From Rhizobium sp. Q54 (lineage in GTDB: Bacteria > Pseudomonadota > Alphaproteobacteria > SHVZ01), in NCBI GenBank assembly GCA_945871425.1, contig CAMBVS010000001.1, positions 16,303 to 80,302 on the forward strand: a stretch of 64,000 nucleotides of DNA. Direction: 5' to 3'. Below, piece by piece: positions 2,394-52,934 of the stretch (positions are counted from its first letter, which is position 1; every line of letters begins with the position of its first letter). The notes beneath the pieces are model-generated. The model was not told the origin of the DNA, did not search any database, and saw only the letters and a program-made list of their open reading frames with translations. Made by a program: the position numbers and the translations under genes.

Positions 2394-3878
2394 ATGACGA
2401 AACCCAGGAACCGGACGCCGCGGATGCGCATGCTCGCCGCCGCGCTTCTGGTCACCACCATCCTCGGCGGCGGCGTCGCCTGGTCGCAGGCGACCATGGT
2501 CCCGCCGGTCGCGGCGCCGACGACGACGGCGACGCCTTACGGCATCCGGCAGCTGGGCTTCGCCGACCTCGTCGACAAGGTGAAGCCGGCGGTGGTCAAC
2601 ATTTCCACCACCGAGAAGGCGGTCCGCCCCAACGCACGCCAGATGCCGAACATGCCCCCGCAGATGGAGGAGATGTTCCGGCGCTACTTCCGCGGCCAGG
2701 GCAATGACGGCGAGGGTCGGGCGAAGCGGTCGGCCGGCTCCGGCTTCATCGTCGATCCGGCCGGCTGGATCGTCACCAACAACCACGTCGTCGACGGCGC
2801 CACCAAGATCACGGTGACGCTGGACAACGGCACGAGCTATCCGGCGACGGTGAAGGGCCGCGACGAGAAGGTCGACGTGGCGCTCTTGAAGATCGACGCC
2901 TCCGGCCCGCTGCCCTATCTCGCGCTCGGCAACTCCGATGCCGCGCGCGTCGGCGACTGGGTGATCGCGGTCGGCAACGCCTTCGGCCTCGGCGGCACGG
3001 TGACGGCGGGCATCATCTCGGCCCACAACCGCAACATCCACGCCGGCCCCTATGACGCCTTCCTGCAGATCGACGCCCCGATCAATCCCGGCAACTCGGG
3101 TGGCCCCCTGTTCAACCAGCAGGGCCAGGTGATCGGCGTCTCGACGGCGATCTACTCGCCGAACGGCGGCAGCGTCGGCATCGGCTTCGCCATCCCGTCC
3201 AACCTCGTCGCCAAGGTGGTGGCGGAGCTGCGCGAGCACGGCAGCGTCAGCCGCGGCTGGCTCGGCGTGCAGATGCAGCCCCTGACCCCGCCTCTGGCGA
3301 AGGCGATGGGCCTGCCCGGCGCCGAGGGCGTCGTGGTCAACCGCGTCGAGGAGAACTCGCCGGCGGCCAAGGCCAGGCTGCAGCTGGGCGACGTCATCAC
3401 CGCCTTCGACGGCCGGGCGATCAAGTCGCCGCGCGATCTCGCCGTCGCCGTCGGCGACGCCAAGGCGGGCACCGCTGCGCGGATGACCGTGTGGCGTGAC
3501 GGCCGCGAGCAGACGGTCAACGTCACCATCGGCGCGCCTCAGAAAGAGAAGGCGGCCGCCAACGACCAGGCTCCGGAGCGCAACCCGGTCGGCCTGGCGC
3601 TGGCCCCGCTGTCGGCCGAGCAGCGGGAAGAGCTGGGCCTGTCGCCGACGGCCAAGGGTGTCGTCGTCTCGCGCGTGACGCCCGACAGCCGGGCGGCCGA
3701 GAGCGGCATCGAGGCGGGCGACGTCATCGTCCGCGTCGGCGACGAGCCGGTGAACGCGCCGGCCGATGCCATCGCCAAGATCCGCAAGGCCGAGGCCGAA
3801 AAAAAAGAGGCCGTGCCGTTGTTGGTCATGCGGGACGGCACCACATATTACTTAGCCCTGCAGCTCCAGCGGAGTTGA
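2394..3878 (+). CDS. Do/DegP/HtrA-family periplasmic serine endoprotease with two PDZ domains
   Basis: 494 aa with a hydrophobic signal-like N-terminus. Catalytic regions 'TNNHVV', 'DVALLKI' and 'GNSGGPLFN' are present, followed by two PDZ-like C-terminal segments. Confidence 0.9.
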   Translation: MTKPRNRTPRMRMLAAALLVTTILGGGVAWSQATMVPPVAAPTTTATPYGIRQLGFADLVDKVKPAVVNISTTEKAVRPNARQMPNMPPQMEEMFRRYFRGQGNDGEGRAKRSAGSGFIVDPAGWIVTNNHVVDGATKITVTLDNGTSYPATVKGRDEKVDVALLKIDASGPLPYLALGNSDAARVGDWVIAVGNAFGLGGTVTAGIISAHNRNIHAGPYDAFLQIDAPINPGNSGGPLFNQQGQVIGVSTAIYSPNGGSVGIGFAIPSNLVAKVVAELREHGSVSRGWLGVQMQPLTPPLAKAMGLPGAEGVVVNRVEENSPAAKARLQLGDVITAFDGRAIKSPRDLAVAVGDAKAGTAARMTVWRDGREQTVNVTIGAPQKEKAAANDQAPERNPVGLALAPLSAEQREELGLSPTAKGVVVSRVTPDSRAAESGIEAGDVIVRVGDEPVNAPADAIAKIRKAEAEKKEAVPLLVMRDGTTYYLALQLQRS

Positions 3879-41218: not shown

Positions 41219-43111
41219 ATGACCACCAGCCCGCTCCTTCGCGTCAACAACCTCAAGATCGTCTTCGATCTGCCGGAGGGGCAGCTCGTCGCCGTCGACG
41301 GCGTCAGCTTCCGCGTGCGCTACGGCCAGACCACGGCGCTGGTCGGCGAGTCGGGCTCGGGCAAGACCGTGGTCTCCCAGGCGATCATGAACATCCTGCC
41401 CAAGGCCGCCCGCGTCGCCTCCGGCCAGATCCTGTTCGCCGATCCGACCAAGGCCGGCACGGTCAACGACATCGCCCACATGCCGCCGGAGAGCCGCGGC
41501 ATGCGCGCCATCCGCGGCGGGCGTATCTCGATCATCTTCCAGGAGCCGATGACCTCGCTCTCGGCGCTCCACACCATCGGCGACCAGATTTCCGAGACGC
41601 TCGAGCTGCACAAGCCGGTCAGCCGCGCCGAAGCGCTGGAGGCAACCCGCGAGATCCTGCGCCTGGTTGGATTCCCCGATCCGAAGAAGGCGATCGACAC
41701 CTATCCCTTCGAGCTGTCGGGCGGGCTCCGCCAGCGCGCCATGATCGCCATGGCGCTGATCTGCCGGCCGGCGCTCCTGATCGCCGACGAGCCGACGACC
41801 GCCCTCGACGTCACCATCCAGGCGCAGATCCTGAAATTGATCGCCGACCTCCAGACAGAGCTCGGCATGGCCGTCCTGGTCATCACCCACGACCTCGGCG
41901 TCGTCGCCAACATCGCCCAGGAGGTTGTGGTGATGTACCGGGGGAAGGTGATGGAGTCGGGCACGGTCGAGGACATCTTCCGCGCGCCCGAGCATCCCTA
42001 CCTGAAGGCGCTGATGCGGGCGGTGCCGCGCCTCGGCATGAAGCCGGGCGAGCGGCTGATCCCGCTCCGCGAGATCAAGAGCGAGCACAGCCGGCTGATG
42101 GCCGAGAAGCCGGCCTGGCCGGAGGGCGCCGACGCCGCCGGGCCGCTGCTCTCGGTCAGGGGCATCACCAAGAGCTTCCAGATCCGCAAGACCGCCTGGT
42201 TCGGCGACAAGTCGGCCGGCAGGGTGCTGGCGGTCGACGACGTCTCCTTCGAGGTCAGGCGCGGCGAGTGCCTGGGCCTGGTCGGCGAGAGCGGCTGCGG
42301 CAAGACCACCTTGTCGAAGATCCTGCTGCGCGCGTTCAAGCCCGACTCCGGCGAGGCGATCTTCAACGACCACGGCCGGCCGGTCGACATGCTGGCGCTC
42401 GAGGGCGACGACCTCATCCGCTTCCGCCGGCAGATGCAGTACGTGTTCCAGGACCCGTTCGGCTCGCTCAATCCGCGCATGACCGTGTTCGACCTCATCG
42501 CCGAGCCGCTGATGATCCACGGCATCGCCGACGAGGCCGAGCGGGCCGAGCGGGTGAAGGAGCTGATGCGCCTTGTCGGGCTCGACGTCCGCCACCTGAA
42601 GCGCTATCCGCACAGCTTCTCCGGCGGCCAGCGCCAGCGCATCTGCATCGCGCGCGCGCTCGCGCTCAGCCCCGATCTCCTGATCTGCGACGAGCCGGTC
42701 TCTGCCCTCGACGTCTCGATCCAGGCGCAGATCCTCAATCTCCTGAAGGACCTGCAGAAGCAGCTCGGCCTGACCTATCTCTTCATCAGCCACAACCTCG
42801 CCGTCGTCGACTATGTCGCCCATCGCATCGCGGTGATGTGCGCCGGCCGCCTGGTCGAGGTGGCGCCGCGCGAGGAGCTGTTCCGCAACCCGGTGCATCC
42901 CTACACCCAGGCGCTGCTCTCGGCGGTGCCGGAGCCCGACCTCGAGCGCAAGCTCGACTTCGCCCATGTGGTCGACAGCAAGGCCTCGATCCCGGCGGCC
43001 TGGCCCGAGCCCTTCCGCATCGACGGCAGCAAGAAGGCGTCGATGATCGACCTCGGCGACGAGCATTTCGTGCGCGCCACCGCAATACCCGTGCTCAAGG
43101 AGGTGGCGTGA
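41219..43111 (+). CDS. ABC transporter ATP-binding protein, duplicated (YejF/DppDF-like)
   Basis: Two cassettes: 'GESGSGKT'...'LSGGLRQR'...'LLIADEPT' and 'GESGCGKT'...'FSGGQRQR'...'LLICDEPV'. I trimmed the track ORF from 40607. Alternative GTG at 41201. Confidence 0.9.
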
Positions 43112-45012
43112 TGCGCCTGCTTCTCGCCGCCGTCCTGGCGCTCGCCGCCGCCGGCGCCGCGGCCCAGCCCTTTCGCGAGCCGCCGAGCCTGCTCGACCAG
43201 GTGGCCGCCGGCAAGCTGCCGCCCGTCACCCTCCGCCTTCCCGAGCGCCCCGACGTCGCCAAGCTGTTGCCGTTCCAGACGATCGGCCGCCACGGCGGCA
43301 GCTGGCGGATGATCGCCGGCGGCGCCTCCGACACGCGCTTTTCCGTCGTCTACGGCTACGCCCGGCTGGTCGGCTACGACGCCCAGTTCAAGCTGCAGCC
43401 CGACATCGCCGAGAAGGTCGAGGTCGAGGACGAGCGCCGCTTCACCTTCCATCTCCGCCCGGGCCATCGCTGGTCCGACGGGGCGCCCTTCACCACCGAC
43501 GACTTCCGCTACGTCTGGGAGGACGTCTACGGCAATTCCAGGCTCCGGCCGTCGGGCGTGCCGATCGAGCTCCTGGTCGAGGGCGAGCGGCCGATCTTCG
43601 AGATCCTGTCGCCGAGCGTGGTGCGTTACACTTGGTCGAGGCCGAACCCCACCTTCCTTCCGGCGCTGGCCAGCCCGCGGCCGCTCGAGATCTTCGGGCC
43701 GGCGCACTACCTCAAGACCTTCCACGAGAAATTCGCCTCGGCAGCCGAGCTCGAGAAGAAGGTGCGCGACACGCGCGTGCGCAACTGGGCGGTGCTGCAC
43801 AATCGCCGCGACAACCAGTACCGCGTCGACAATCCCGACCTGCCGACGCTTCAGCCGTGGATGCTGGCGACGGTGCCGCCGGCCGACCGCTTCGTCTTCA
43901 AGCGCAATCCCTACTACCACCGGGTCGACGCCGAGGGCCGGCAGCTTCCCTATCTCGACGAGCTGGTGATGGCGCTCGCCGACTCGAAGATCGTGCCGCT
44001 GAAGACCGGCGCCGGCGAAGCCGACCTGCAGGCGCGCTACCTCCGCTTCGACAACTACACCTTCCTGAAGGAAGCGGAGGCGAGGAACGGCTACAAGGTG
44101 CGCCTATGGCGGACGGTGCGCGGCGCCGACCAGGCGCTGGTGCCGAACCTCAACGTCAGCGATCCGGTGTGGCGCCAGGTGCTGCGCGACGTCCGCTTCC
44201 GCCGCGCGCTCTCGCTCGGCACCAACCGCCACGAGATCAACCAGGTGATCTATTACGGGCTCGGCATCGAGGGGAACAACACGGCGCTGCCGGGCTCGCC
44301 CCTGTTCGACGCCGAGTACCGCACCCGCTGGACCCGCTACGACCTCCGCACCGCCAACGCGCTGCTCGACGAGATGGGGCTGACCAAGCGCGACCACCGG
44401 GGGCTGCGCCTGCTTCCCGATGGCCGGCCGATGAAGATCGTGATCGAGAGCGCCGGCGAGTCGACCGAGCAGACCGACGTGCTGGAGCTTCTGCACGACA
44501 CCTGGATCGAGCTCGGCATCAAGATCTATCCGAAGGCCCTCCAGCGCGACGTCATGCGCAACCGCATCTTCGCCGGCGAGACGGTGATGTGCATCTGGTT
44601 CGGCTCGGAATTCGCGCTGATGGACGCCGACTCGAACCCCAAGGACTACGTCGTCTCCGACCAGCAGCAGCTGCAATGGCCGAAATGGGGTCAGTTCCGC
44701 GAGACCAAGGGCAAGGCCGGCGAGCCGGTAGACATGCCCGAGGCGAAGGAGCTGCAGGAGCTCGAGCACGCCTGGGCCGCGACCGCCGATCGCGCCGAGC
44801 GCACCCGCATATGGCGCCGCATCCTCGAGATCAACGCCGACCAGCAGTTCACCATCGGCATCCTCGCCGGCGCCTTCCAGCCGGTGGTGATCGCGAGCGC
44901 TCTCAAGAACGTGCCGGAGGAAGGGATCTTCAACTGGGAGCCCGGAGCGCAATTCGGCATGTACCGGCCGGACACGTTCTACTTCGCCACATCCGACGTG
45001 GCGTCGAAGTGA
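43111..45012 (+). CDS. ABC substrate-binding protein, family 5 (YejA-like, long form)
   Basis: The ATG overlaps the upstream stop (GTGATG). Signal '[19 protein letters not shown]'. 633 aa. Confidence 0.85.
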   Translation: MRLLLAAVLALAAAGAAAQPFREPPSLLDQVAAGKLPPVTLRLPERPDVAKLLPFQTIGRHGGSWRMIAGGASDTRFSVVYGYARLVGYDAQFKLQPDIAEKVEVEDERRFTFHLRPGHRWSDGAPFTTDDFRYVWEDVYGNSRLRPSGVPIELLVEGERPIFEILSPSVVRYTWSRPNPTFLPALASPRPLEIFGPAHYLKTFHEKFASAAELEKKVRDTRVRNWAVLHNRRDNQYRVDNPDLPTLQPWMLATVPPADRFVFKRNPYYHRVDAEGRQLPYLDELVMALADSKIVPLKTGAGEADLQARYLRFDNYTFLKEAEARNGYKVRLWRTVRGADQALVPNLNVSDPVWRQVLRDVRFRRALSLGTNRHEINQVIYYGLGIEGNNTALPGSPLFDAEYRTRWTRYDLRTANALLDEMGLTKRDHRGLRLLPDGRPMKIVIESAGESTEQTDVLELLHDTWIELGIKIYPKALQRDVMRNRIFAGETVMCIWFGSEFALMDADSNPKDYVVSDQQQLQWPKWGQFRETKGKAGEPVDMPEAKELQELEHAWAATADRAERTRIWRRILEINADQQFTIGILAGAFQPVVIASALKNVPEEGIFNWEPGAQFGMYRPDTFYFATSDVASK

Positions 45013-45016
45013 ACGA

Positions 45017-45120
45017 GTCCCTGCCCCTTCCCCCCACTCTATCCCTGCCCCCACTGTGGGGGAGGTACGCGCAACGCGAAGCGTTGTCGCGCTGGGTGAG
45101 GGGTGCCGTTGCCGCCCCTC
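45017..45120. repeat. B-family-related G/C-run palindromic repeat, copy B3
   Basis: 'ccctgcccc...ccctgcccccac-tgt-gggggagg', followed by hairpin 'gcgcaacgc-gaa-gcgttgtcgcgc'. Confidence 0.5.
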
Positions 45121-45133
45121 GCTCCGGAGGCGA

Positions 45134-46135
45134 ATGATGTTCGGCTACGTCGTCCACCGCCTCCTGGTGATGATCCCGACGCTGCTCGCCATCAGCGCCA
45201 TCACCTTCCTGATCATGCAGCTGCCGCCGGGCGACTTCCTGTCGACCCACATCGCCGAGCTGCAGAGCCAGGGCGAGTCCGTCGACATGGCGAAGATCGA
45301 GTTCCTGCGCCAGCAATACGGCCTCGACCACTCGCCGGTGGTCCAGTATTTCCACTGGATCTTCGGCATGCTGCAGGGCGACTTCGGCTACTCATTCGAG
45401 TTCCAGCTGCCGGTCACCAAGGTCGTCGGCGACAAGATGTGGCTAACCGTCATCGTCTCGGTCGCCACCATCCTCTTCACCTGGATCGTCAGCTTTCCGA
45501 TCGCGATCTACTCGGCGACCCACCAGTACTCCTGGGGCGACCACGGCCTGACCCTGATCGGCTTCCTCGGCCTGGCGACGCCCAACTTCCTCCTGGCGCT
45601 GGTTCTGCTCTACTTCGCCAACGCCTATTTCGGCATCTCGATCGGCGGGCTGATGGACGACCGTTTCCTCGATGCGCCGTGGAGCTGGGAGAAGATGCGC
45701 TCGGTCCTGGCCCATCTCTGGGTCCCGACGCTGGTGATCGGCGCGTCGGGCACGGCCGGCATGATCCGGCGCCTTCGCGCCAACCTGCTGGACGAGCTGC
45801 AGAAGCAGTACTACGTCACCGCGCGGGCCAAGGGCATGGGGCCGTTCCGGGCGCTGGTGAAGTATCCGCTGCGCATGTCGCTGAACCCGTTCATCAGCGA
45901 CATCGGCAGCATCCTGCCCAGCATCATCTCCGGCGCCGCGGTGGTCTCCATCGTCATGAACCTGCCGACCACCGGGCCGATGCTGCTCCGCGCCCTCCAG
46001 GCCCAGGACACCTATCTCGCCGGCTCGTTCCTGATGTTCCTGGCCGTGCTGACGGTGGTCGGCGTCTTCCTCTCCGACCTGGCGCTGGCGGCGCTCGATC
46101 CGCGCATCCGGCTCGAAGGCGGGAGCAGCCGATGA
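45134..46135 (+). CDS. ABC transporter permease (YejB/DppB-like)
   Basis: ATG 45134 follows 'ggagg'. 'MMFGYVVHRLLVMIPTLLAISAITFLI' is the typical N-terminus. Six TM segments. Confidence 0.9.
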   Translation: MMFGYVVHRLLVMIPTLLAISAITFLIMQLPPGDFLSTHIAELQSQGESVDMAKIEFLRQQYGLDHSPVVQYFHWIFGMLQGDFGYSFEFQLPVTKVVGDKMWLTVIVSVATILFTWIVSFPIAIYSATHQYSWGDHGLTLIGFLGLATPNFLLALVLLYFANAYFGISIGGLMDDRFLDAPWSWEKMRSVLAHLWVPTLVIGASGTAGMIRRLRANLLDELQKQYYVTARAKGMGPFRALVKYPLRMSLNPFISDIGSILPSIISGAAVVSIVMNLPTTGPMLLRALQAQDTYLAGSFLMFLAVLTVVGVFLSDLALAALDPRIRLEGGSSR

Positions 46136-47292
46136 CCGCCCAGCCGCCGCTCGAGCACTACGTCAGCCGCGCGCCGTTCAATCCGGCGACCGACGAGGCG
46201 CTGACGCCGGAGCAGGAACGCTACTACATGGCGTCGCAGTGGCGGATGATGTGGCGGAAGCTCCGCCGCCATCACCTGGCCGTGCTCTCCGGCGCCATCC
46301 TGATCGTGCTCTACGCCTCGATCCTGGTGACCGAGATGCTGGCGCCCTACAGCGTCGCCACCCGCCACACCGACCACCTGTTCGCGCCGCCGCAGTCGAT
46401 CCATCTTTTCCACGAAGGCAGCTTCGTCGGCCCCTTCGTCTACGGCTACGCCTACCGCCTCAACATGGAGAACCTCAGGCGCGAATACACCGAGGACACG
46501 CGCAAGGTCGAGAAGCTGCGCTTCTTCTGCCAGGGCGACGAGTACCGCTTCTGGGGGATGATCGAGATGAAGTTCCATTTCGTCTGCCCGGCGGTCAACG
46601 GCGAGTTCTTCCTGTTCGGCACCGATCGCCTGGGGCGCGACATGTTCTCGCGCATCCTCTACGGCACCCGCATCTCGCTCACCGTGGGATTGATCGGCAT
46701 CACCATCTCCTTCGTGCTCGGCATCGTCGTCGGCGGGCTTGCCGGGTATTACGGCGGCTGGACCGACGCCATCGTCCAGCGCATCATCGAATGCATCCGC
46801 TCGTTCCCGGAGCTGCCGCTGTGGATGGCGCTCTCCGCCGCGCTCCCGGTCGACTGGAGCCCGGTGCTGATCTATTTCGGCATCACCATCATCTTAGGGC
46901 TCCTCGACTGGACCGGCCTCGCCCGCTCGGTCCGCTCCAAGCTGCTGGCGCTGCGCGAGGAGGACTTCTGCACCGCCGCCGTGCTGATGGGGGCGAAGCC
47001 GGGCCGCATCATCTTCCGCCACCTGATGCCGAGCTTCACCAGCCACCTGATCGCGTCGGCCACGCTGTCGATCCCCAGCATGATCCTCGGCGAGACGGCG
47101 CTGTCGTTCCTGGGCCTCGGACTCCGTCCGCCGATCACCAGCTGGGGCGTGCTGCTGAACGAGGCGCAGAACATCAACGTGGTGGCGCTCTATCCCTGGC
47201 TGATGATCCCGGTTATCCCGGTGATCGTCACCGTCCTCGCCTTCAACTTCCTCGGCGACGGGCTCCGGGACGCGGCGGATCCGTACAAGTAA
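46132..47292 (+). CDS. ABC transporter permease (YejE/DppC-like, long N-terminus)
   Basis: The ATG overlaps the upstream stop (ATGA). 'GTDRLGRDMFSRILYG' plus an EAA-like region. Confidence 0.9.
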   Translation: MTAQPPLEHYVSRAPFNPATDEALTPEQERYYMASQWRMMWRKLRRHHLAVLSGAILIVLYASILVTEMLAPYSVATRHTDHLFAPPQSIHLFHEGSFVGPFVYGYAYRLNMENLRREYTEDTRKVEKLRFFCQGDEYRFWGMIEMKFHFVCPAVNGEFFLFGTDRLGRDMFSRILYGTRISLTVGLIGITISFVLGIVVGGLAGYYGGWTDAIVQRIIECIRSFPELPLWMALSAALPVDWSPVLIYFGITIILGLLDWTGLARSVRSKLLALREEDFCTAAVLMGAKPGRIIFRHLMPSFTSHLIASATLSIPSMILGETALSFLGLGLRPPITSWGVLLNEAQNINVVALYPWLMIPVIPVIVTVLAFNFLGDGLRDAADPYK

Positions 47293-48501
47293 CTAGTTCG
47301 GCTTTCCCGCCTCTCTGAGCGGCTTCGTCAGCAGTCCGGCGATCCCGCCGGCCACGGTCATCGCACCGACCAGGCCGACGGTCGCGGCGATGCCGATCGC
47401 AGGCAGCAGGAATCCGGCGAGCGCGCCGCCGACCGGGCGGCCGGACTGCATCAGCATCCGCAAGAGCGCGAAGGCGCGGCCGCGCATGGCTTCCGGGATG
47501 ATCGCCATGCGCAAGGTCTGCGCCCAGGGGGTCAGCGGTGCGGCGGCGATGCCCCAGGCGAGGAAGACGGCGCCGGTCAAGGTCGCGTCCGGGGCGAGGA
47601 GGACGAGCAGCAGCACCAGGCCCGCGAGCGTCTGCGCCAGCGCGATGCCGAGGCCGAGCCGCACCCGGCCGCCGATCTGCCCGATCGCCAGCGTCGCCCC
47701 GATCTGGCCGACCGAGATGATGCCGAGCAAGATGCCGTAGAGTTCGGGCCCGCCGCCGAGAGTCTGCTCGACATGCAGAGGCAGCCACACCGGAACGCTG
47801 CCGGTGCCGATGTTGTAGACGAGGAACATGAAGGTGGTGGCGATCAGGATCGGATTGCCGAAGAGAAGACGGACAGCATCGCCGATCGGCGCCGATGCCC
47901 GCTTCACCGGCGCCGGCAGCGACAGCTTGAGCCGGAAGAGGATCAGCGCGAAGAGAACGTAGGAGACGACGTCCAGCATCACCGTCGCCGGCGCGCCGAT
48001 GCCGGCGATGAGGAGGCCGGCCAGCACCGGCCCGGCGACCCCGGCCAGCGAGTAGGCCAGGGTCTCCAGCGCGTTCGCCGTCGCCAGGCGCTCCTTCGGC
48101 GCCAGCGCCAGGATCATCGTCGGCGTGCCGGCGAGCGAGATCATCAGGAGGAGGCCGTAGACGGATGCCGCGACATACACGTGCCAGACCTCGAGCCAGC
48201 CGAGCAGATGCAGCGCCGGCACCGCGGCGAGTGCCAAGCCGCGGATGAGGTTGTCGACGGTCATCACCAGGCGGCGGTCGAAGCGATCCAGCAGCCAGCC
48301 GGCGACGAAGCCGCCGACCACGATCGGCCCGGTCAGGCAGAGCATGAGGATGCCGAGCGCCTCCGCCGATCCGGTCCGCTCGTAGACGAACCAGACCAGC
48401 GCCACCTTGGTCAGCTCGTCGCCGGTGGCCGAGACCAGCAGGCCCGCCCAGAAGCGGCGGAACGGCGGATCGCTGAGGAGATCGGCGTAGGGGCTGGACA
48501 C
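47293..48501 (-). CDS. MFS transporter
   Basis: 402 aa, 'FRRFWAGLLVSATGDELTKVAL', about 12 TM segments. High GC: 45/60 on line 47401. Confidence 0.8.
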   Translation of the reverse strand: MSSPYADLLSDPPFRRFWAGLLVSATGDELTKVALVWFVYERTGSAEALGILMLCLTGPIVVGGFVAGWLLDRFDRRLVMTVDNLIRGLALAAVPALHLLGWLEVWHVYVAASVYGLLLMISLAGTPTMILALAPKERLATANALETLAYSLAGVAGPVLAGLLIAGIGAPATVMLDVVSYVLFALILFRLKLSLPAPVKRASAPIGDAVRLLFGNPILIATTFMFLVYNIGTGSVPVWLPLHVEQTLGGGPELYGILLGIISVGQIGATLAIGQIGGRVRLGLGIALAQTLAGLVLLLVLLAPDATLTGAVFLAWGIAAAPLTPWAQTLRMAIIPEAMRGRAFALLRMLMQSGRPVGGALAGFLLPAIGIAATVGLVGAMTVAGGIAGLLTKPLREAGKPN

Positions 48502-48743
48502 GGGGGTTGAGAATAGACGCCCGGTCCTGCCACCGTCCTGTCAGGTATCGACTGGCGGGGGGGCGGGTGATCGGCTATCACGCGATCGACAAACGCCCCC
48601 ACCCGGGCGGCGGCGAAGACGCCGCCTCTCCTCCCCGGCTTCGCCGAGAGAGGGGGTTCGATTTCGAAACCCTGCCTCGGCTGCGCAGCAGACGGATGAG
48701 GGCAGGGGAGAGGCTTGAGCCCGGACTTCAAGAGGACTTCATC

Positions 48744-51554
48744 GTGGACTTTGCCGGCGGACCGCTGATCGGACGAATCCTAGAAATCGCGAGGCGGGCC
48801 GGTGACGAGCCGTTTCTTCGCTTGCTCGGTGCTGACGGAATCGCGACAGAGTTGTCCTACGGTGTTCTTCTCCAGCAGGCGGGCGTGTGGTCGAAGATCT
48901 ACCGAAAACATAATTTAGAGCCCGGCCAGCGGGTGGCGATCTTCCTACCGCATTCCGTTGACAGCTATGCCGCTTTTCTCGGCGCGCTTCTAAGCGCCCT
49001 TGTTCCGGCGATGCTGCCTCCGCCGTCGCCCAAGCTCTCGACGGGCCGCTTCAACGCTACAGTATTGCCCGTCTTGCCCATTACGAAATCTCACGCGGTC
49101 GTTCTTGGCGCGGACTTTCGCGCGGGATTCGAGGCGCAGCCGGGGCTAACAGTTCTCGATGCATCCGCGACGCTGTCGGAGACGGTCCCGACGTTGGACC
49201 AGGTCACATTCCCGATCGGAGGCCTGGGAAACACGCCTGCATTTCTCCAGTACAGTTCCGGCACGACGGGTCTTCGAAAGGCCGTCGCAATTTCTCAGCA
49301 TGCATGCGTTCGACAAGTGGATCTTTACCGCGCGGCGATCGAGCTCAGCCCTTCAGACTCGATCGTTTCGTGGCTCCCGCTTTACCACGACATGGGTCTG
49401 ATCGCATGCTGGATGCTGCCCCTCTTGACGGGAACGCCAGTCACCACGATGTCGCCCTTCGATTGGGTAGGGCGACCTTCCATGTTGACGCGCGCCATCG
49501 AGGACTATCGACCTACGCTCTGCTGGCTTCCGAATTTCGCGTTCTCGCATCTTGCCCGCTCGATCACGGGACGTGATTTGACTCTTGGAAGTTGGAGTTC
49601 GCTGCGCGCGGTCATCAATTGCTCGGAACCAATTCGGCATGTGAGTCACGAGGCGTTTCTACGCAGATTCAAGTCGGCGGGCGTCACACCTGCCAAGATC
49701 GCTACTTGCTATGCGATGGCAGAGGCTACGTTTGCCGTAACCTCATCGCGGGTCGGGGAGCCTCCCCCGACCCTGTCGGTTGATCCGACAAGTCTCGGCG
49801 TTGGGTCCACCGTTCGTCCAGGTGAGAGGCGGCTGGTATCATCCGGGCGGCCCATAGGAGGGACGACCGTTCGCATCGTCGATGATCGTGGCAACGATGT
49901 CCCGGACAGTGTCGTTGGTCACGTGCGCGTGACGAGCGAGAGTCTCGCAGCCGGATATCTCGAGAACGACGAAGCAACGCAAGCTGCCTTCGCTGGTAAC
50001 GAGCTGCACACAGGTGATTTAGGCTTCGTGAGTGGTGGCGAGACGTTCGTCCTGGGGCGGGCCGACGACATGATCATCGTCGCCGGACGAAACATCTATC
50101 CCCAGGATTTGGAATGCGTCGCGGAATCGATTCCGGGGACGATTCCTGGCCGATCGGTCGCATTCGGTGTCGATGATGCTGTCGATGGCACCGCTCACAT
50201 CATTGTCGTTGTTGAAGTCGAGGAGGCACGAAACCGCGATGTCCTGGAGCGGCAGATTGCTTCCGAGCTGGTTGCCCAAGTCGATGTGTCGCCGCGAGTA
50301 GTCAAGATCGTCGATCGTGGTTGGCTCATCAAGTCGACGTCCGGAAAGGTGTCTCGTCGGCTCAACCGCGATCGCTATCTATCTGAGGCGACAACGCCGC
50401 CTCAGGCTTCAGAACTGACGCGACCCGACAAGCACGCGCCGCTTCGCAGCTTCGTACGGGCTGCCGTATCAGCGGCCCTGGGGCGGTCAGCGCCGGCTGA
50501 CGACGAGTCTCTCATCATGAGCGGTCTTCTCGATTCCCTTTCGTTGACGACTTTGCTTCTCGAACTCGGCGAGCGCATCGGCGACCGACTGCCAATGCCC
50601 AATGTCGTGGGTTTTCGCCACTATGAGACGATTGAATCCATCTGCCGCTTGCTGGACGAAGTCGAACGGGGATTCTCCTTACCCGCACGAGAAGCGCTGT
50701 CGAGAGTTCGAGAAACAAAGGTAAAGGGCCTGTCGAGATCTACAGGCGCACTCGACCTCATCATCTTGGGGAGTAGTACGTTCTTGGCTGTTCCCAGTCG
50801 GATGACGAAGGCTTCCGCAATGTCTGGCTTCAATCTGTCGGTGAACGGGGCAACGCTCGCCGAACTCTACTGCTTGTTGCAGCTTGCGAGGAATCGTCGG
50901 AAAGCAATCCATCGCGCCATTGTCGGCCTCGATCTTTGCGCTTTCAGGGCAAGATCAGCAGTTCTTGACCTAAAAACACTCACACTTCCGGAGGTCGCAG
51001 CGTATCTGGCGCCAGAGGATCAGGCGGAGATCGCGCAACGCAAGCGCGAGGCATTGCTGGCGTCTCAGCATTCCCGCATCAACCTTGAGCGGCTTGCCGA
51101 ATGGACTCCGGAAGTGGCGACCAATATCGATGAGCAGACAGGCGAGCTGATATTTGCGACGCCCAACGGACACCGGTCGGTGCGACGGCATGGTCCGGAG
51201 GAAATGACCCACGAAATGGTTATGGCATATGCCGAGTTCGACGCCCTCTGTCCGAGGCAAGTGACCTACCTTCAACGCCTTGTTTCCATCGCCGCGACGG
51301 CGGGGATCATGCTCGATCTCGTCGTCGTGCCTATTAATCCCAACCTTCACTCGTTCCTTGCGCAAAGCACGCGCTATTTTCAACGACGAACGGACGTTCT
51401 TGCGAAGCTCGAACCACTTCGTTCAGAGACGGTGAGGGTTCATGACATGATGACCCCGAGCGCTTTCGGTGGTGCCAATGATGGCTTCACGGATGCGCAC
51501 CATTTCGGTCCCGAAATTGCGACTCCGCTCTTAGAACACATTCTATCAGCCTAG
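48744..51554 (+). CDS. fusion protein: fatty-acyl-AMP ligase (FAAL-type adenylation) + carrier protein + DltD-like/SGNH-type C-terminal domain
   Basis: GTG 48744 follows 'agagga' (alternative ATG 48696). Adenylation motifs are 'YSSGTTGLRKAV', 'WLPLYHDMGL', 'HTGDLGF', 'GRADDMIIVAGRNIYPQDLE' and 'SGKVSRR'. The carrier motif is 'GLLDSLS'. The C-terminal ~300 aa carry 'LIILGSSTF' and 'FTDAHHFG'. Lower GC: 34/60 and 30/60 on lines 49201 and 50941. Confidence 0.75.
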   Translation: MDFAGGPLIGRILEIARRAGDEPFLRLLGADGIATELSYGVLLQQAGVWSKIYRKHNLEPGQRVAIFLPHSVDSYAAFLGALLSALVPAMLPPPSPKLSTGRFNATVLPVLPITKSHAVVLGADFRAGFEAQPGLTVLDASATLSETVPTLDQVTFPIGGLGNTPAFLQYSSGTTGLRKAVAISQHACVRQVDLYRAAIELSPSDSIVSWLPLYHDMGLIACWMLPLLTGTPVTTMSPFDWVGRPSMLTRAIEDYRPTLCWLPNFAFSHLARSITGRDLTLGSWSSLRAVINCSEPIRHVSHEAFLRRFKSAGVTPAKIATCYAMAEATFAVTSSRVGEPPPTLSVDPTSLGVGSTVRPGERRLVSSGRPIGGTTVRIVDDRGNDVPDSVVGHVRVTSESLAAGYLENDEATQAAFAGNELHTGDLGFVSGGETFVLGRADDMIIVAGRNIYPQDLECVAESIPGTIPGRSVAFGVDDAVDGTAHIIVVVEVEEARNRDVLERQIASELVAQVDVSPRVVKIVDRGWLIKSTSGKVSRRLNRDRYLSEATTPPQASELTRPDKHAPLRSFVRAAVSAALGRSAPADDESLIMSGLLDSLSLTTLLLELGERIGDRLPMPNVVGFRHYETIESICRLLDEVERGFSLPAREALSRVRETKVKGLSRSTGALDLIILGSSTFLAVPSRMTKASAMSGFNLSVNGATLAELYCLLQLARNRRKAIHRAIVGLDLCAFRARSAVLDLKTLTLPEVAAYLAPEDQAEIAQRKREALLASQHSRINLERLAEWTPEVATNIDEQTGELIFATPNGHRSVRRHGPEEMTHEMVMAYAEFDALCPRQVTYLQRLVSIAATAGIMLDLVVVPINPNLHSFLAQSTRYFQRRTDVLAKLEPLRSETVRVHDMMTPSAFGGANDGFTDAHHFGPEIATPLLEHILSA

Positions 51555-51581
51555 CGTGGGCAGCGAAGGCCGGCAGTAGGA

Positions 51582-51613
51582 GATGGTCGGCGGCATCGAA
51601 CCGCCGGGCCGAC
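51582..51613 (-). other. tRNA 3'-end-like fragment (T-arm plus acceptor strand), minus orientation
   Basis: The reverse complement reads 'ggcgg-ttcgatg-ccgcc-gaccatc-t'. No matching 5' acceptor strand is nearby. Confidence 0.25.
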
Positions 51614-51679
51614 GCCGATGGGTAACATAGCCACGACACTTGGCAGTTAAGCCATTAAGAATCCTTGATTTACAGAGTG

Positions 51680-51720
51680 TTCTGACTCCGCCAGTCTAGG
51701 TTCGAATCCTAGGTCCCTCG
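51680..51720 (+). other. tRNA 3'-half-like fragment (anticodon-loop-like, T-arm, acceptor 3' strand): possible integration-site remnant
   Basis: 'ctagg-ttcgaat-cctag-gtccctc-g' has the GGTTCGAATCC T-loop consensus. The complementary 5' acceptor 'gagggac' is absent from the preceding ~100 nt, so this is not an intact tRNA. Confidence 0.4.
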
Positions 51721-51737
51721 TTCATCCGGATGAACCC

Positions 51738-52934
51738 ATGCCTCGCTTCAACACCCTCGACGATCTCTCCGTGAAATCGAAGCGCGTGCTCGTGCGCGCC
51801 GATCTCAACGTGCCGGTCAAGGACGGCAGGGCGACCGATACCACCCGCATCGACCGCCTGGTGCCGACGCTGGCGGAGCTGACGGGGAAGGGAGCGCGGG
51901 TCGTCGTACTCTCGCATTTCGGCCGGCCGAAGGGCGGGCCGGACGAGACGAATTCGCTCAAGCACCTGGTGCCCGATCTTGCGAAGGCGGTCGGCAAGCC
52001 GGTCGCCTTCGCCACCGACTGCATCGGTGCGGCCGCCGAGTCGGTGGTCGCGGCGCTGAAGGACGGCGAGATCGCGCTTCTTGAGAATCTCCGCTTCCAC
52101 AAGGGCGAGGAGGCGAATGACGCCGCCTTTGCCGATGCGCTGGCGAAGCTCGGCGATCTCTATGTCGACGATGCCTTCTCGGCGGCGCATCGCGCGCACG
52201 CCTCGATCGAGGCGCTGGCGAAGCGCCTGCCGGCGGCGGCTGGGCGGCTGATGCAGGCGGAGCTTGAGGCGCTGTCGAGAGCGCTCGACAAGCCCGAGCG
52301 GCCGCTCGCCGCCATCGTCGGCGGCGCCAAGGTCTCGACCAAGCTCGACCTCCTCGGCAACCTCGTGGCCAAGGTCGACATCCTCGCCATCGGCGGCGGC
52401 ATGGCGAACACCTTCCTGGTCGCGCAGGGCATCGAGATCGGTCGTTCGCTGGCCGAGCGCGACATGGCGGAGACCGCGCGCGAGATCCTGAAGAAGGCTG
52501 CCGAGCGGAACTGCCGCATCGTGCTGCCGGTCGACGCGGTGGTGGCATCGGCGCTGAAGGAGGGCGTCGACACCCGCACCGTCGCCATCGACTTCGTGCC
52601 GGAGGACCTGATGATCCTCGATGTCGGCCCGAAGAGCGTCGCCGAGCTGACCAAGGTCCTGGGCGAGTGCCGGACGCTGGTGTGGAACGGCCCGCTCGGC
52701 GCCTTCGAGACCAGGCCCTTCGATGCGGCGACGGTGGCGATCGCGCGCGCCGCGGCTGCGCTTACCAAGGCCGGCAAGCTGAACTCGGTCGGCGGCGGCG
52801 GCGACACCGTGGCGGCGCTGACCGCGGCCGGGGTCGAGGAACAGTTCAGCTATGTCTCGACCGCCGGCGGCGCCTTCCTCGAATGGCTCGAAGGCAAGAC
52901 CTTGCCGGGGGTCGCGGCCTTGATGCAGGGTTGA
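51738..52934 (+). CDS. pgk: phosphoglycerate kinase
   Basis: 398 aa. '[11 protein letters not shown]', 'SHFGRPKG', '[12 protein letters not shown]' and '[14 protein letters not shown]' are the classic PGK signatures. Confidence 0.97.

Follow-up and report, generated by a model that had tools for sequence, protein, structure and literature searches.

The present work concerns a gene for a 936-residue protein in which an adenylation domain of the fatty acyl-AMP ligase (FAAL) type, a phosphopantetheine carrier domain and a domain resembling the SGNH transferase DltD are joined in a single polypeptide. The gene lies in a 64,000-nucleotide stretch of DNA catalogued as Rhizobium sp. Q54 (GenBank assembly GCA_945871425.1, contig CAMBVS010000001.1, positions 16,303 to 80,302 of the forward strand), which is referred to below as the window. 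It occupies, alone, an insertion of about 3.0 kb that was acquired horizontally; the protein has no membrane anchor, and no MBOAT gene is present anywhere in the 64-kb window. With a confidence slightly better than even, the gene is read here as encoding a horizontally acquired, cytoplasmic, self-contained enzyme that activates an acyl group, carries it and transfers it independently of an MBOAT.

In the proposed reaction the FAAL domain would adenylate a carboxylic acid, which is most probably a fatty acid of medium or long chain, and the in-cis carrier would receive the acyl group on the phosphopantetheine arm of its Ser598. From this carrier thioester the acyl group would move directly to Ser678, the nucleophile of the SGNH domain, with Asp917 and His920 assisting, and the domain would hand it to an acceptor's hydroxyl or amine and not to water. 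The enzyme would in this way work without the MBOAT membrane step that is needed by its stand-alone, membrane-anchored relatives.

Three domains in one polypeptide

An earlier note on this DNA, made from the letters alone, had proposed the fusion of three activities from short motifs. Every FAAL, carrier and SGNH motif that it quoted is present in the translation, and the fusion itself is borne out, for the FAAL and carrier domains by matches in Pfam and in the Protein Data Bank (PDB), and for the SGNH/DltD-like domain by AlphaFold2 modelling combined with Foldseek (domain boundaries are given in Table 1).

In the adenylation domain, residues 17-406 match Pfam AMP-binding (E 2e-45). NCBIfam gives its highest scores (up to 310 bits) to subfamilies of long-chain fatty-acid ligases and fatty acyl-AMP ligases, and the nearest PDB sequences are all FAALs: the FAAL domain of the Synechococcus olefin synthase (7r7e-g, E 7e-65), Legionella 3kxw, E. 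coli 3pbk, FadD32, FadD23 and FadD28. Acyl-CoA ligases appear among the PDB sequence matches only from about E 1e-23, and a structure search with the full-length model again puts FAALs on top, in the same ranking as the sequence search. By these comparisons the adenylation domain is nearer to FAALs than to acyl-CoA ligases. In an alignment made against the olefin-synthase FAAL 7r7f only, residues 333-366 run almost gap-free through the stretch of the FAAL-specific insertion that follows motif A5 (YAMAE). The nearest FAAL structures were solved with C16 and C18 acyl-adenylates, and across 61 aligned full-length homologs core motifs including QYSSGTTG, TGD and SGK do not vary.

The carrier domain is recognized by Pfam PP-binding (PF00550) at residues 570-637, with 22.1 bits against a cut-off of 20.8, and is modelled by AlphaFold2 as a helical bundle at residues 567-641. 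Its phosphopantetheine site is Ser598 in the motif GLLDS598L (codon 50535-50537), which is invariant among the 61 homologs; Gly594, Asp597 and Leu599 are each conserved in at least 90% of them.

The C-terminal domain is covered by no existing family model: Pfam gives no match to residues 640-936, and NCBIfam likewise has no model for this part of the protein. When the domain was used alone, a word-index homology search returned nothing, sequence and profile searches of PDB chains gave matches at chance level, and the profile search of PDB sequences did not recover DltD; homologs of the domain were instead reached through the full-length protein, 68 of whose 120 best full-length matches possess it. 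The AlphaFold2 model of the domain, produced with the homolog alignment as input (pLDDT 89.3, pTM 0.89), has an SGNH fold, and the seven best Foldseek matches to it in the PDB are all DltD (6pfx, 3bma and 6o93; E 1e-5 to 4e-4, probability 1.0, TMq 0.46-0.52), from structures of the E. faecium, S. pneumoniae and E. faecalis proteins. The next matches are other SGNH enzymes, namely platelet-activating factor (PAF) acetylhydrolase, the peptidoglycan O-acetyltransferase PatB and E. coli thioesterase I (TesA, 5tic).

Three residues of the domain, Gly676, Ser678 and His920, do not vary in either homolog alignment (38 and 61 sequences), and Ser677, Asp730, Asp917 and several other positions are conserved in at least 90% of the 61. 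The triad of L. plantarum DltD consists of Ser74, Asp373 and His376 (PMC13653941), and the same Ser...Asp-x-x-His layout is formed here by Ser678 (codon 50775-50777), Asp917 (51492-51494) and His920 (51501-51503). The earlier note had made its reading depend on a SGNH/DltD-like fold whose Ser, Asp and His are conserved in homologs, and this is what the model and the alignments give.

The resemblance to DltD does not extend to the corresponding Pfam family. The Pfam DltD model (PF04914) is unmatched, at E up to 1, by the window protein and by every one of 38 members of the C-terminal family. The sole Pfam family that several members do match is DUF1574 (PF07611), which is recognized weakly in 11 of the 38 (best E 8e-5) and faintly in one stand-alone homolog, but not in the window protein itself; DUF1574 is an uncharacterised family of the SGNH clan, without known function or structure (PMC9487903). 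As modelled, the C-terminal domain is DltD-like in its shape and catalytic layout, yet lies outside the DltD Pfam family.

The full-length model (pLDDT 88.8, pTM 0.86; short low-confidence linkers at about residues 549-566 and 642-654) aligns with the adenylation, peptidyl carrier and thioesterase (A-PCP-TE) termination module of EntF (TMq 0.53-0.54), and with the initiation module of LgrA in its thiolation state at a root-mean-square deviation of about 5 Å over some 650 columns. The window protein has no N-terminal hydrophobic segment that could act as an anchor or signal sequence, in agreement with the earlier note, and its sole hydrophobic peak (residues 846-864) is a core helix and strand buried in the modelled SGNH fold. 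The model is that of a soluble, presumably cytoplasmic, three-domain enzyme arranged as an A-PCP-TE module of a nonribosomal peptide synthetase (NRPS).

A single-gene insertion

The insertion is seen by comparison with two close relatives (L095 and L096; pgk 94% identical) that have the gene order OppC, MFS transporter (- strand), pgk (+ strand). Their MFS-pgk spacer is empty and 227 nt long (L095:3301-3527, L096:6774-7000), where the window has positions 48502-51737. The DNA of the relatives aligns with the window at 88-90% identity up to 48707 and resumes at 51706, with 8 nt between, and the intervening insert contains this one gene together with 36 nt upstream of it and about 150 nt downstream. 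The gene has a GC content of 0.587 and a third-position GC content (GC3) of 0.637, against 0.65-0.71 and 0.90-0.95 in all eight neighbouring genes; along the gene GC runs at 0.55-0.61, compared with 0.68-0.72 on either side.

Because GC3 is so much lower than in the neighbouring genes, and because the MFS-pgk site is empty in close relatives, the segment between 48708 and about 51705 is an insertion, acquired horizontally, of a single gene. Since the relatives have the empty site and the segment holds one gene, the gene arrived without partners. The earlier note had argued for horizontal acquisition both from a GC content below that of the flanks, which is as it described, and from tRNA-like fragments beside the gene; the conclusion stands on the GC3 contrast and the empty site, while the tRNA argument fails.

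A tRNA integration site was in fact considered and rejected. ARAGORN finds no tRNA in the window, nor in the downstream spacer at default or 80% thresholds, and the calls that it makes in that spacer at low threshold are implausible, running into coding sequence. The element that resembles a tRNA is a T-arm-like hairpin, CTAGGTTCGAATCCTAG, which spans the right junction of the insert; its Rfam tRNA match (12.9 bits, E 4.8) is non-significant and no better than chance, and part of the hairpin aligns with native sequence in the relatives (GGGGGCGATCCAG). The exact word GGTTCGAATCC occurs once, and at one mismatch the pattern is equally frequent in shuffled sequence and in the window. An integron cassette was rejected as well, since the attC-like core-site consensus is not present in the insert as inspected by eye. 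No integrase, mobility gene, target-site duplication or terminal inverted repeats were found at the insert, no convincing direct or inverted repeats flank it, and its non-coding 5' and 3' ends have no match in the other loci.

The native part of the MFS-pgk spacer also contains a conserved palindromic hairpin, GGGGGTTCGATTTCGAAACCC, at window positions 48650-48672, which recurs in slightly different form in the empty-site relatives (L095 at about 3431-3455).

Relatives and their genomic contexts

Searched with a C-terminal-domain profile, a set of 1.84 billion representative proteins yielded 6,571 matches at E up to 1e-3, of which 276 have E 1e-30 or lower, so that the domain defines a family of thousands outside all Pfam and NCBIfam models. 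The best 150 profile matches comprise about 35 fused proteins (930-1000 aa) and about 100 stand-alone proteins (300-460 aa). The stand-alone homologs carry, as DltD does, an N-terminal hydrophobic segment (91 of 103), and they adjoin an MBOAT gene in all four of the loci that were readable (L045, L091, L093 and L094); one of these, L045:9914-14704 from an Ignavibacteriae metagenome-assembled genome (MAG), holds a complete operon of FAAL, carrier, MBOAT and DltD-like genes.

The fused genes were followed in seven distinct contexts, in which there is no MBOAT within 10 kb and no conserved neighbour. Around the window gene, none of the genes called within 10 kb on either side encodes a polyketide synthase (PKS), NRPS, phosphopantetheinyl transferase or MBOAT, as the earlier note had stated. 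Its description of the system as self-contained is thus consistent with the one-gene insert, with the lack of a shared neighbour and with the lack of a nearby MBOAT. In one context (L006:2704-12721) the fused gene follows a beta-oxidation operon on the same strand after 224 nt. The operon encodes an acyl-CoA ligase, a thiolase, a hydroxyacyl-CoA dehydrogenase/hydratase and an acyl-CoA dehydrogenase, and its position hints at a fatty-acid substrate.

A locus search based on the full-length alignment returned mostly stand-alone FAALs, and an MBOAT lies within a few kb in 29 of the 80 genome loci that have the closest FAALs. In Chloroflexi one operon recurs, encoding a small protein, an MBOAT, SGNH/GDSL-like proteins (one to three or more), a carrier and a FAAL. 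Operons combining a FAAL, a small carrier, an MBOAT and SGNH/GDSL-like proteins occur in that phylum at L013, L015-L022, L024, L026, L028, L033 and L090, and in Acidobacteriota at L056, L059, L063, L065, L070 and L076. These operons have the appearance of a Dlt-like MBOAT/SGNH pathway that depends on a carrier and is founded on a fatty-acid ligase. The SGNH-like proteins of the Chloroflexi operons were considered as members of the C-terminal family, and this was rejected because their hhalign comparison with the C-terminal profile is not significant; they belong to different SGNH subfamilies.

In other FAAL-carrier proteins the C-terminal place is taken by a different domain of transferase or hydrolase type, hexapeptide-repeat or GDSL_2, and FAAL-PlsC fusions are found in L071-L089. 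Several further arrangements were noted. A Magnetococcales MAG encodes a permuted protein with a FAAL, an SGNH-like part (GDSH...DGTH) and a C-terminal carrier (L072:2-2599), and the cultured strain Alteromonas facilis P0213 has a 981-codon open reading frame (ORF) in which a FAAL and a carrier are followed by a different SGNH-like C-terminus (GASS...DYWH; L074:9974-12916). A solo carrier-DltD-like didomain of 412 aa, without an adenylation domain, is encoded at L092:1650-2888 (P0122); the 9.5-kb contig there has no MBOAT. Among 80 species-representative genomes a single fused-type locus occurs, in a marine Alphaproteobacteria MAG (L011:9875-12775), where an in-frame stop separates the adenylation domain (542 codons) from the carrier-DltD-like part (424 codons); gene splitting, pseudogene formation or a sequencing error could account for this.

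Weighing the proposed activity

A cytoplasmic, MBOAT-independent reaction is the reading best supported by these data, because the stand-alone relatives are extracytoplasmic partners of MBOAT proteins and the fused form has lost the anchor, and because the fused carrier must be charged with ATP in the cytoplasm and the gene moved alone. A precedent for attack on acyl thioesters by this fold is E. coli TesA, the SGNH thioesterase among the structural matches (5tic), which cleaves them. Three points weigh against the reading. The likeness to DltD is at the level of the fold only: the TM-score is about 0.5, identity is 10-12%, and the Pfam DltD model is unmatched. At 15 of 160 well-conserved positions the window protein has a residue other than that of the family consensus, and the departures in its C-terminal domain include G692A, H865N, D914G and N925I, so that its activity could be altered. 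Finally, the absence of an MBOAT applies to the 64-kb window and the 10-kb flanks, not to whole genomes.

A broader interpretation is advanced more tentatively, at somewhat less than even confidence. A DltD-type transferase, which normally acts outside the membrane and after an MBOAT, may have become cytoplasmic and been coupled directly to a FAAL and a carrier. The outcome would be a mobile single-gene module that puts fatty acyl groups, as esters, on an acceptor inside the cell or in the inner leaflet, for instance a lipid, a small metabolite or a lipid-linked glycan precursor. Taken with the relatives' FAAL-carrier-MBOAT-SGNH operons, this module would represent a second carrier-protein-dependent branch of MBOAT/SGNH-type acylation that uses fatty acids and not D-alanine. 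According to a mechanistic paper of 2025, MBOAT/SGNH pathways other than Dlt have no carrier protein (PMC12148441).

The alternative that survives best, although it is unlikely, is that the SGNH domain is a hydrolytic thioesterase which releases or proofreads the carrier-bound acyl group as a free acid. Release domains that end A-PCP modules can be hydrolytic, and the structural matches of the C-terminal domain include E. coli thioesterase I (5tic), PAF acetylhydrolases and other esterases. Activation with ATP followed by hydrolysis back to the free acid would, however, be a futile cycle, and the best structural matches are to the transferase DltD, while the closest sequence relatives are DltD-type proteins partnered by MBOAT proteins. 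In addition, the sister proteins that bear a hexapeptide-repeat domain at the same position have there a domain typical of acyltransferases.

It is improbable, to a greater degree, that the protein belongs to a Dlt-like pathway with dispersed genes, in which the acyl group goes to an MBOAT or other partner encoded elsewhere. For the FAAL and for the C-terminal domain alike, stand-alone homologs are usually found in MBOAT operons, and the view of this genome extends over 64 kb only, which leaves room for such a partner. Against this, the gene arrived alone on a 3-kb insert and is missing from close relatives, and the seven fused contexts have no MBOAT within 10 kb. The topology is also at odds with a Dlt-like relay, since the SGNH protein of the Dlt pathway works outside the membrane (PMC12148441), whereas the SGNH domain here has neither anchor nor signal and is tethered to a cytoplasmic carrier.

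There is a similarly small chance that the acquired copy is decaying or inactive in this host. The 15 deviations place it among the most divergent members of the family, its codon composition is not adapted to the host, and a simple scan found no sigma-70-like promoter for the gene. The deviation count nevertheless falls inside the family range of 1-20, and the 936-codon frame is intact with all predicted catalytic residues kept. The same protein is also present on three contigs from different samples; in the protein database it falls in cluster P0001, of 11 member sequences and the same 936-aa length, listed at 100% identity, whose representative differs from the window protein at a single residue.

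The least credible alternative, that of a FAAL-carrier loading module for a PKS or NRPS elsewhere with the SGNH domain as an accessory, draws on the fact that didomains of FAAL and acyl carrier protein commonly initiate lipopeptide and polyketide assembly lines (PMC8460268) and on one homolog labelled 'non-ribosomal peptide synthetase, partial' by its source, and has against it the invariant C-terminal catalytic residues, the single-gene insertion and the lack of any PKS or NRPS adjoining the fused gene in the seven contexts.

Relation to known systems

The cytoplasmic activate-carry-transfer enzyme proposed here is rated as Dlt-like chemistry in an A-PCP-TE-like layout. The Dlt pathway (DltA, DltC, the MBOAT DltB, DltX and DltD) shares its logic, in that a ligase loads a phosphopantetheinyl carrier and an SGNH enzyme with a Ser...Asp-x-x-His arrangement makes the last transfer; the C-terminal domain matches DltD best in structure, and the stand-alone relatives are anchored and MBOAT-adjacent as DltD is. 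The window protein differs in having all three activities on one polypeptide, in having a ligase of the FAAL type and not the DltA type, and in leaving the Pfam DltD model unmatched. The fused form also lacks an MBOAT, DltX and a membrane anchor, and therefore the SGNH domain would have to act in the cytoplasm, taking the acyl group directly from the carrier.

The A-PCP-TE modules of NRPSs such as EntF and SrfA-C have the same domain order, short linkers and, like the window protein, a serine nucleophile in the release domain. Here the release domain is of the SGNH and not the alpha/beta-hydrolase class, the adenylation domain is a FAAL, and there is no condensation domain. The relation to DUF1574 is confined to the weak matches within the C-terminal family that are described above.

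Two further systems share part of this logic. In Vibrio cholerae AlmEFG, a Dlt-like ligase and carrier feed a transferase on the cytoplasmic side without an MBOAT; the system differs in that its proteins are separate, glycine is activated, and the transferase is an enzyme of the lipid A acyltransferase family and not an SGNH protein. E. coli Aas likewise fuses an acid-activating ligase to an acyltransferase, but is a membrane protein with a PlsC-type domain and no fused carrier. Fusions of FAALs with acyltransferases (lysophospholipid acyltransferases, LPLATs) and with PKS or NRPS proteins are noted in FAAL surveys (PMC8460268, PMC12820801). The FAAL-PlsC/LPLAT fusions also combine an acid-activating ligase and an acyltransferase in one protein; they are membrane proteins whose acyltransferase domain is of the PlsC type (HX4D) and which lack a fused carrier, whereas the window protein has a carrier and an SGNH domain and no membrane segment.

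The earlier note had allowed that the architecture might be common and already characterised. No description of a fused FAAL-carrier-SGNH protein was found in the literature searched, including the two FAAL-wide surveys (PMC8460268, PMC12820801). In the published picture, the MBOAT/SGNH pairs that acylate bacterial envelopes use a carrier protein in the Dlt pathway only (PMC12148441). The present work suggests two additions to it: that many uncultured lineages pair a FAAL and carrier with MBOAT and SGNH proteins in operons, and that a fused, anchor-less form dispenses with the MBOAT altogether. If the protein is active as proposed, one gene of 3 kb could give a new host a new fatty-acylated product, and would offer a compact system in which to study an SGNH transferase that draws its acyl group from a carrier thioester.

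Gene coordinates, host and neighbouring DNA

The gene lies within a stop-to-stop ORF at 48507-51554, the longest on the + strand. The GTG at 48744, which gives the 936-residue protein, is the first in-frame start codon within the inserted DNA, and a Shine-Dalgarno-like sequence, recognized from the letters of the DNA, precedes it. The coordinates of the features are collected in Table 1.

Table 1. Features of the inserted gene and its surroundings, in window coordinates
Feature	Position	Strand	Remarks
Gene for FAAL-carrier-DltD-like protein	48744..51554	+	936 aa, GTG start, stop codon included
Fatty acyl-AMP ligase (adenylation) domain	48744..50387	+	residues 1-548; Pfam, NCBIfam, PDB sequence and structure matches
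Carrier (PP-binding) domain	50442..50666	+	residues 567-641; Pfam, conservation, model
DltD-like SGNH domain	50706..51551	+	residues 655-936 (~280 aa); AlphaFold2, Foldseek, conservation
Shine-Dalgarno-like AAGAGGA (putative)	48730..48736	+	7 nt 5' of GTG, inside insert; from sequence
Inserted segment, ~3.0 kb	48708..51705	.	absent from close relatives; right boundary uncertain by ~12 nt (51693-51705)
T-arm-like hairpin CTAGGTTCGAATCCTAG	51695..51711	+	perfect; spans right junction of insert; not a tRNA gene
MFS transporter gene, native left flank	47293..48501	-	adjoins pgk directly in relatives
Phosphoglycerate kinase gene (pgk), native right flank	51738..52934	+	gene call

The pgk protein of the window is 85% identical to that of a Rhodospirillaceae MAG and about 70% identical to those of Oceanibaculum, Dongiaceae and Stellaceae, and, judged by this protein, the host belongs with uncultured Rhodospirillales-like alphaproteobacteria. 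A second small difference in gene content separates the window from its relatives: a 2OG-Fe(II) oxygenase gene, which in two of them lies between glutamine amidotransferase-like and LolA genes (L095:8063-8686 and L098:3796-4422), is missing at about 56.1-56.3 kb of the window.

To the left of the insert, window positions 42268-48510 contain very long overlapping ORFs in several frames on both strands, for example 42268-45012 (914 aa) and 45103-47292 (729 aa). These are a by-product of the GC content of about 70%, and the real genes there are the components of an ABC peptide transporter and the MFS gene, as called in L001.

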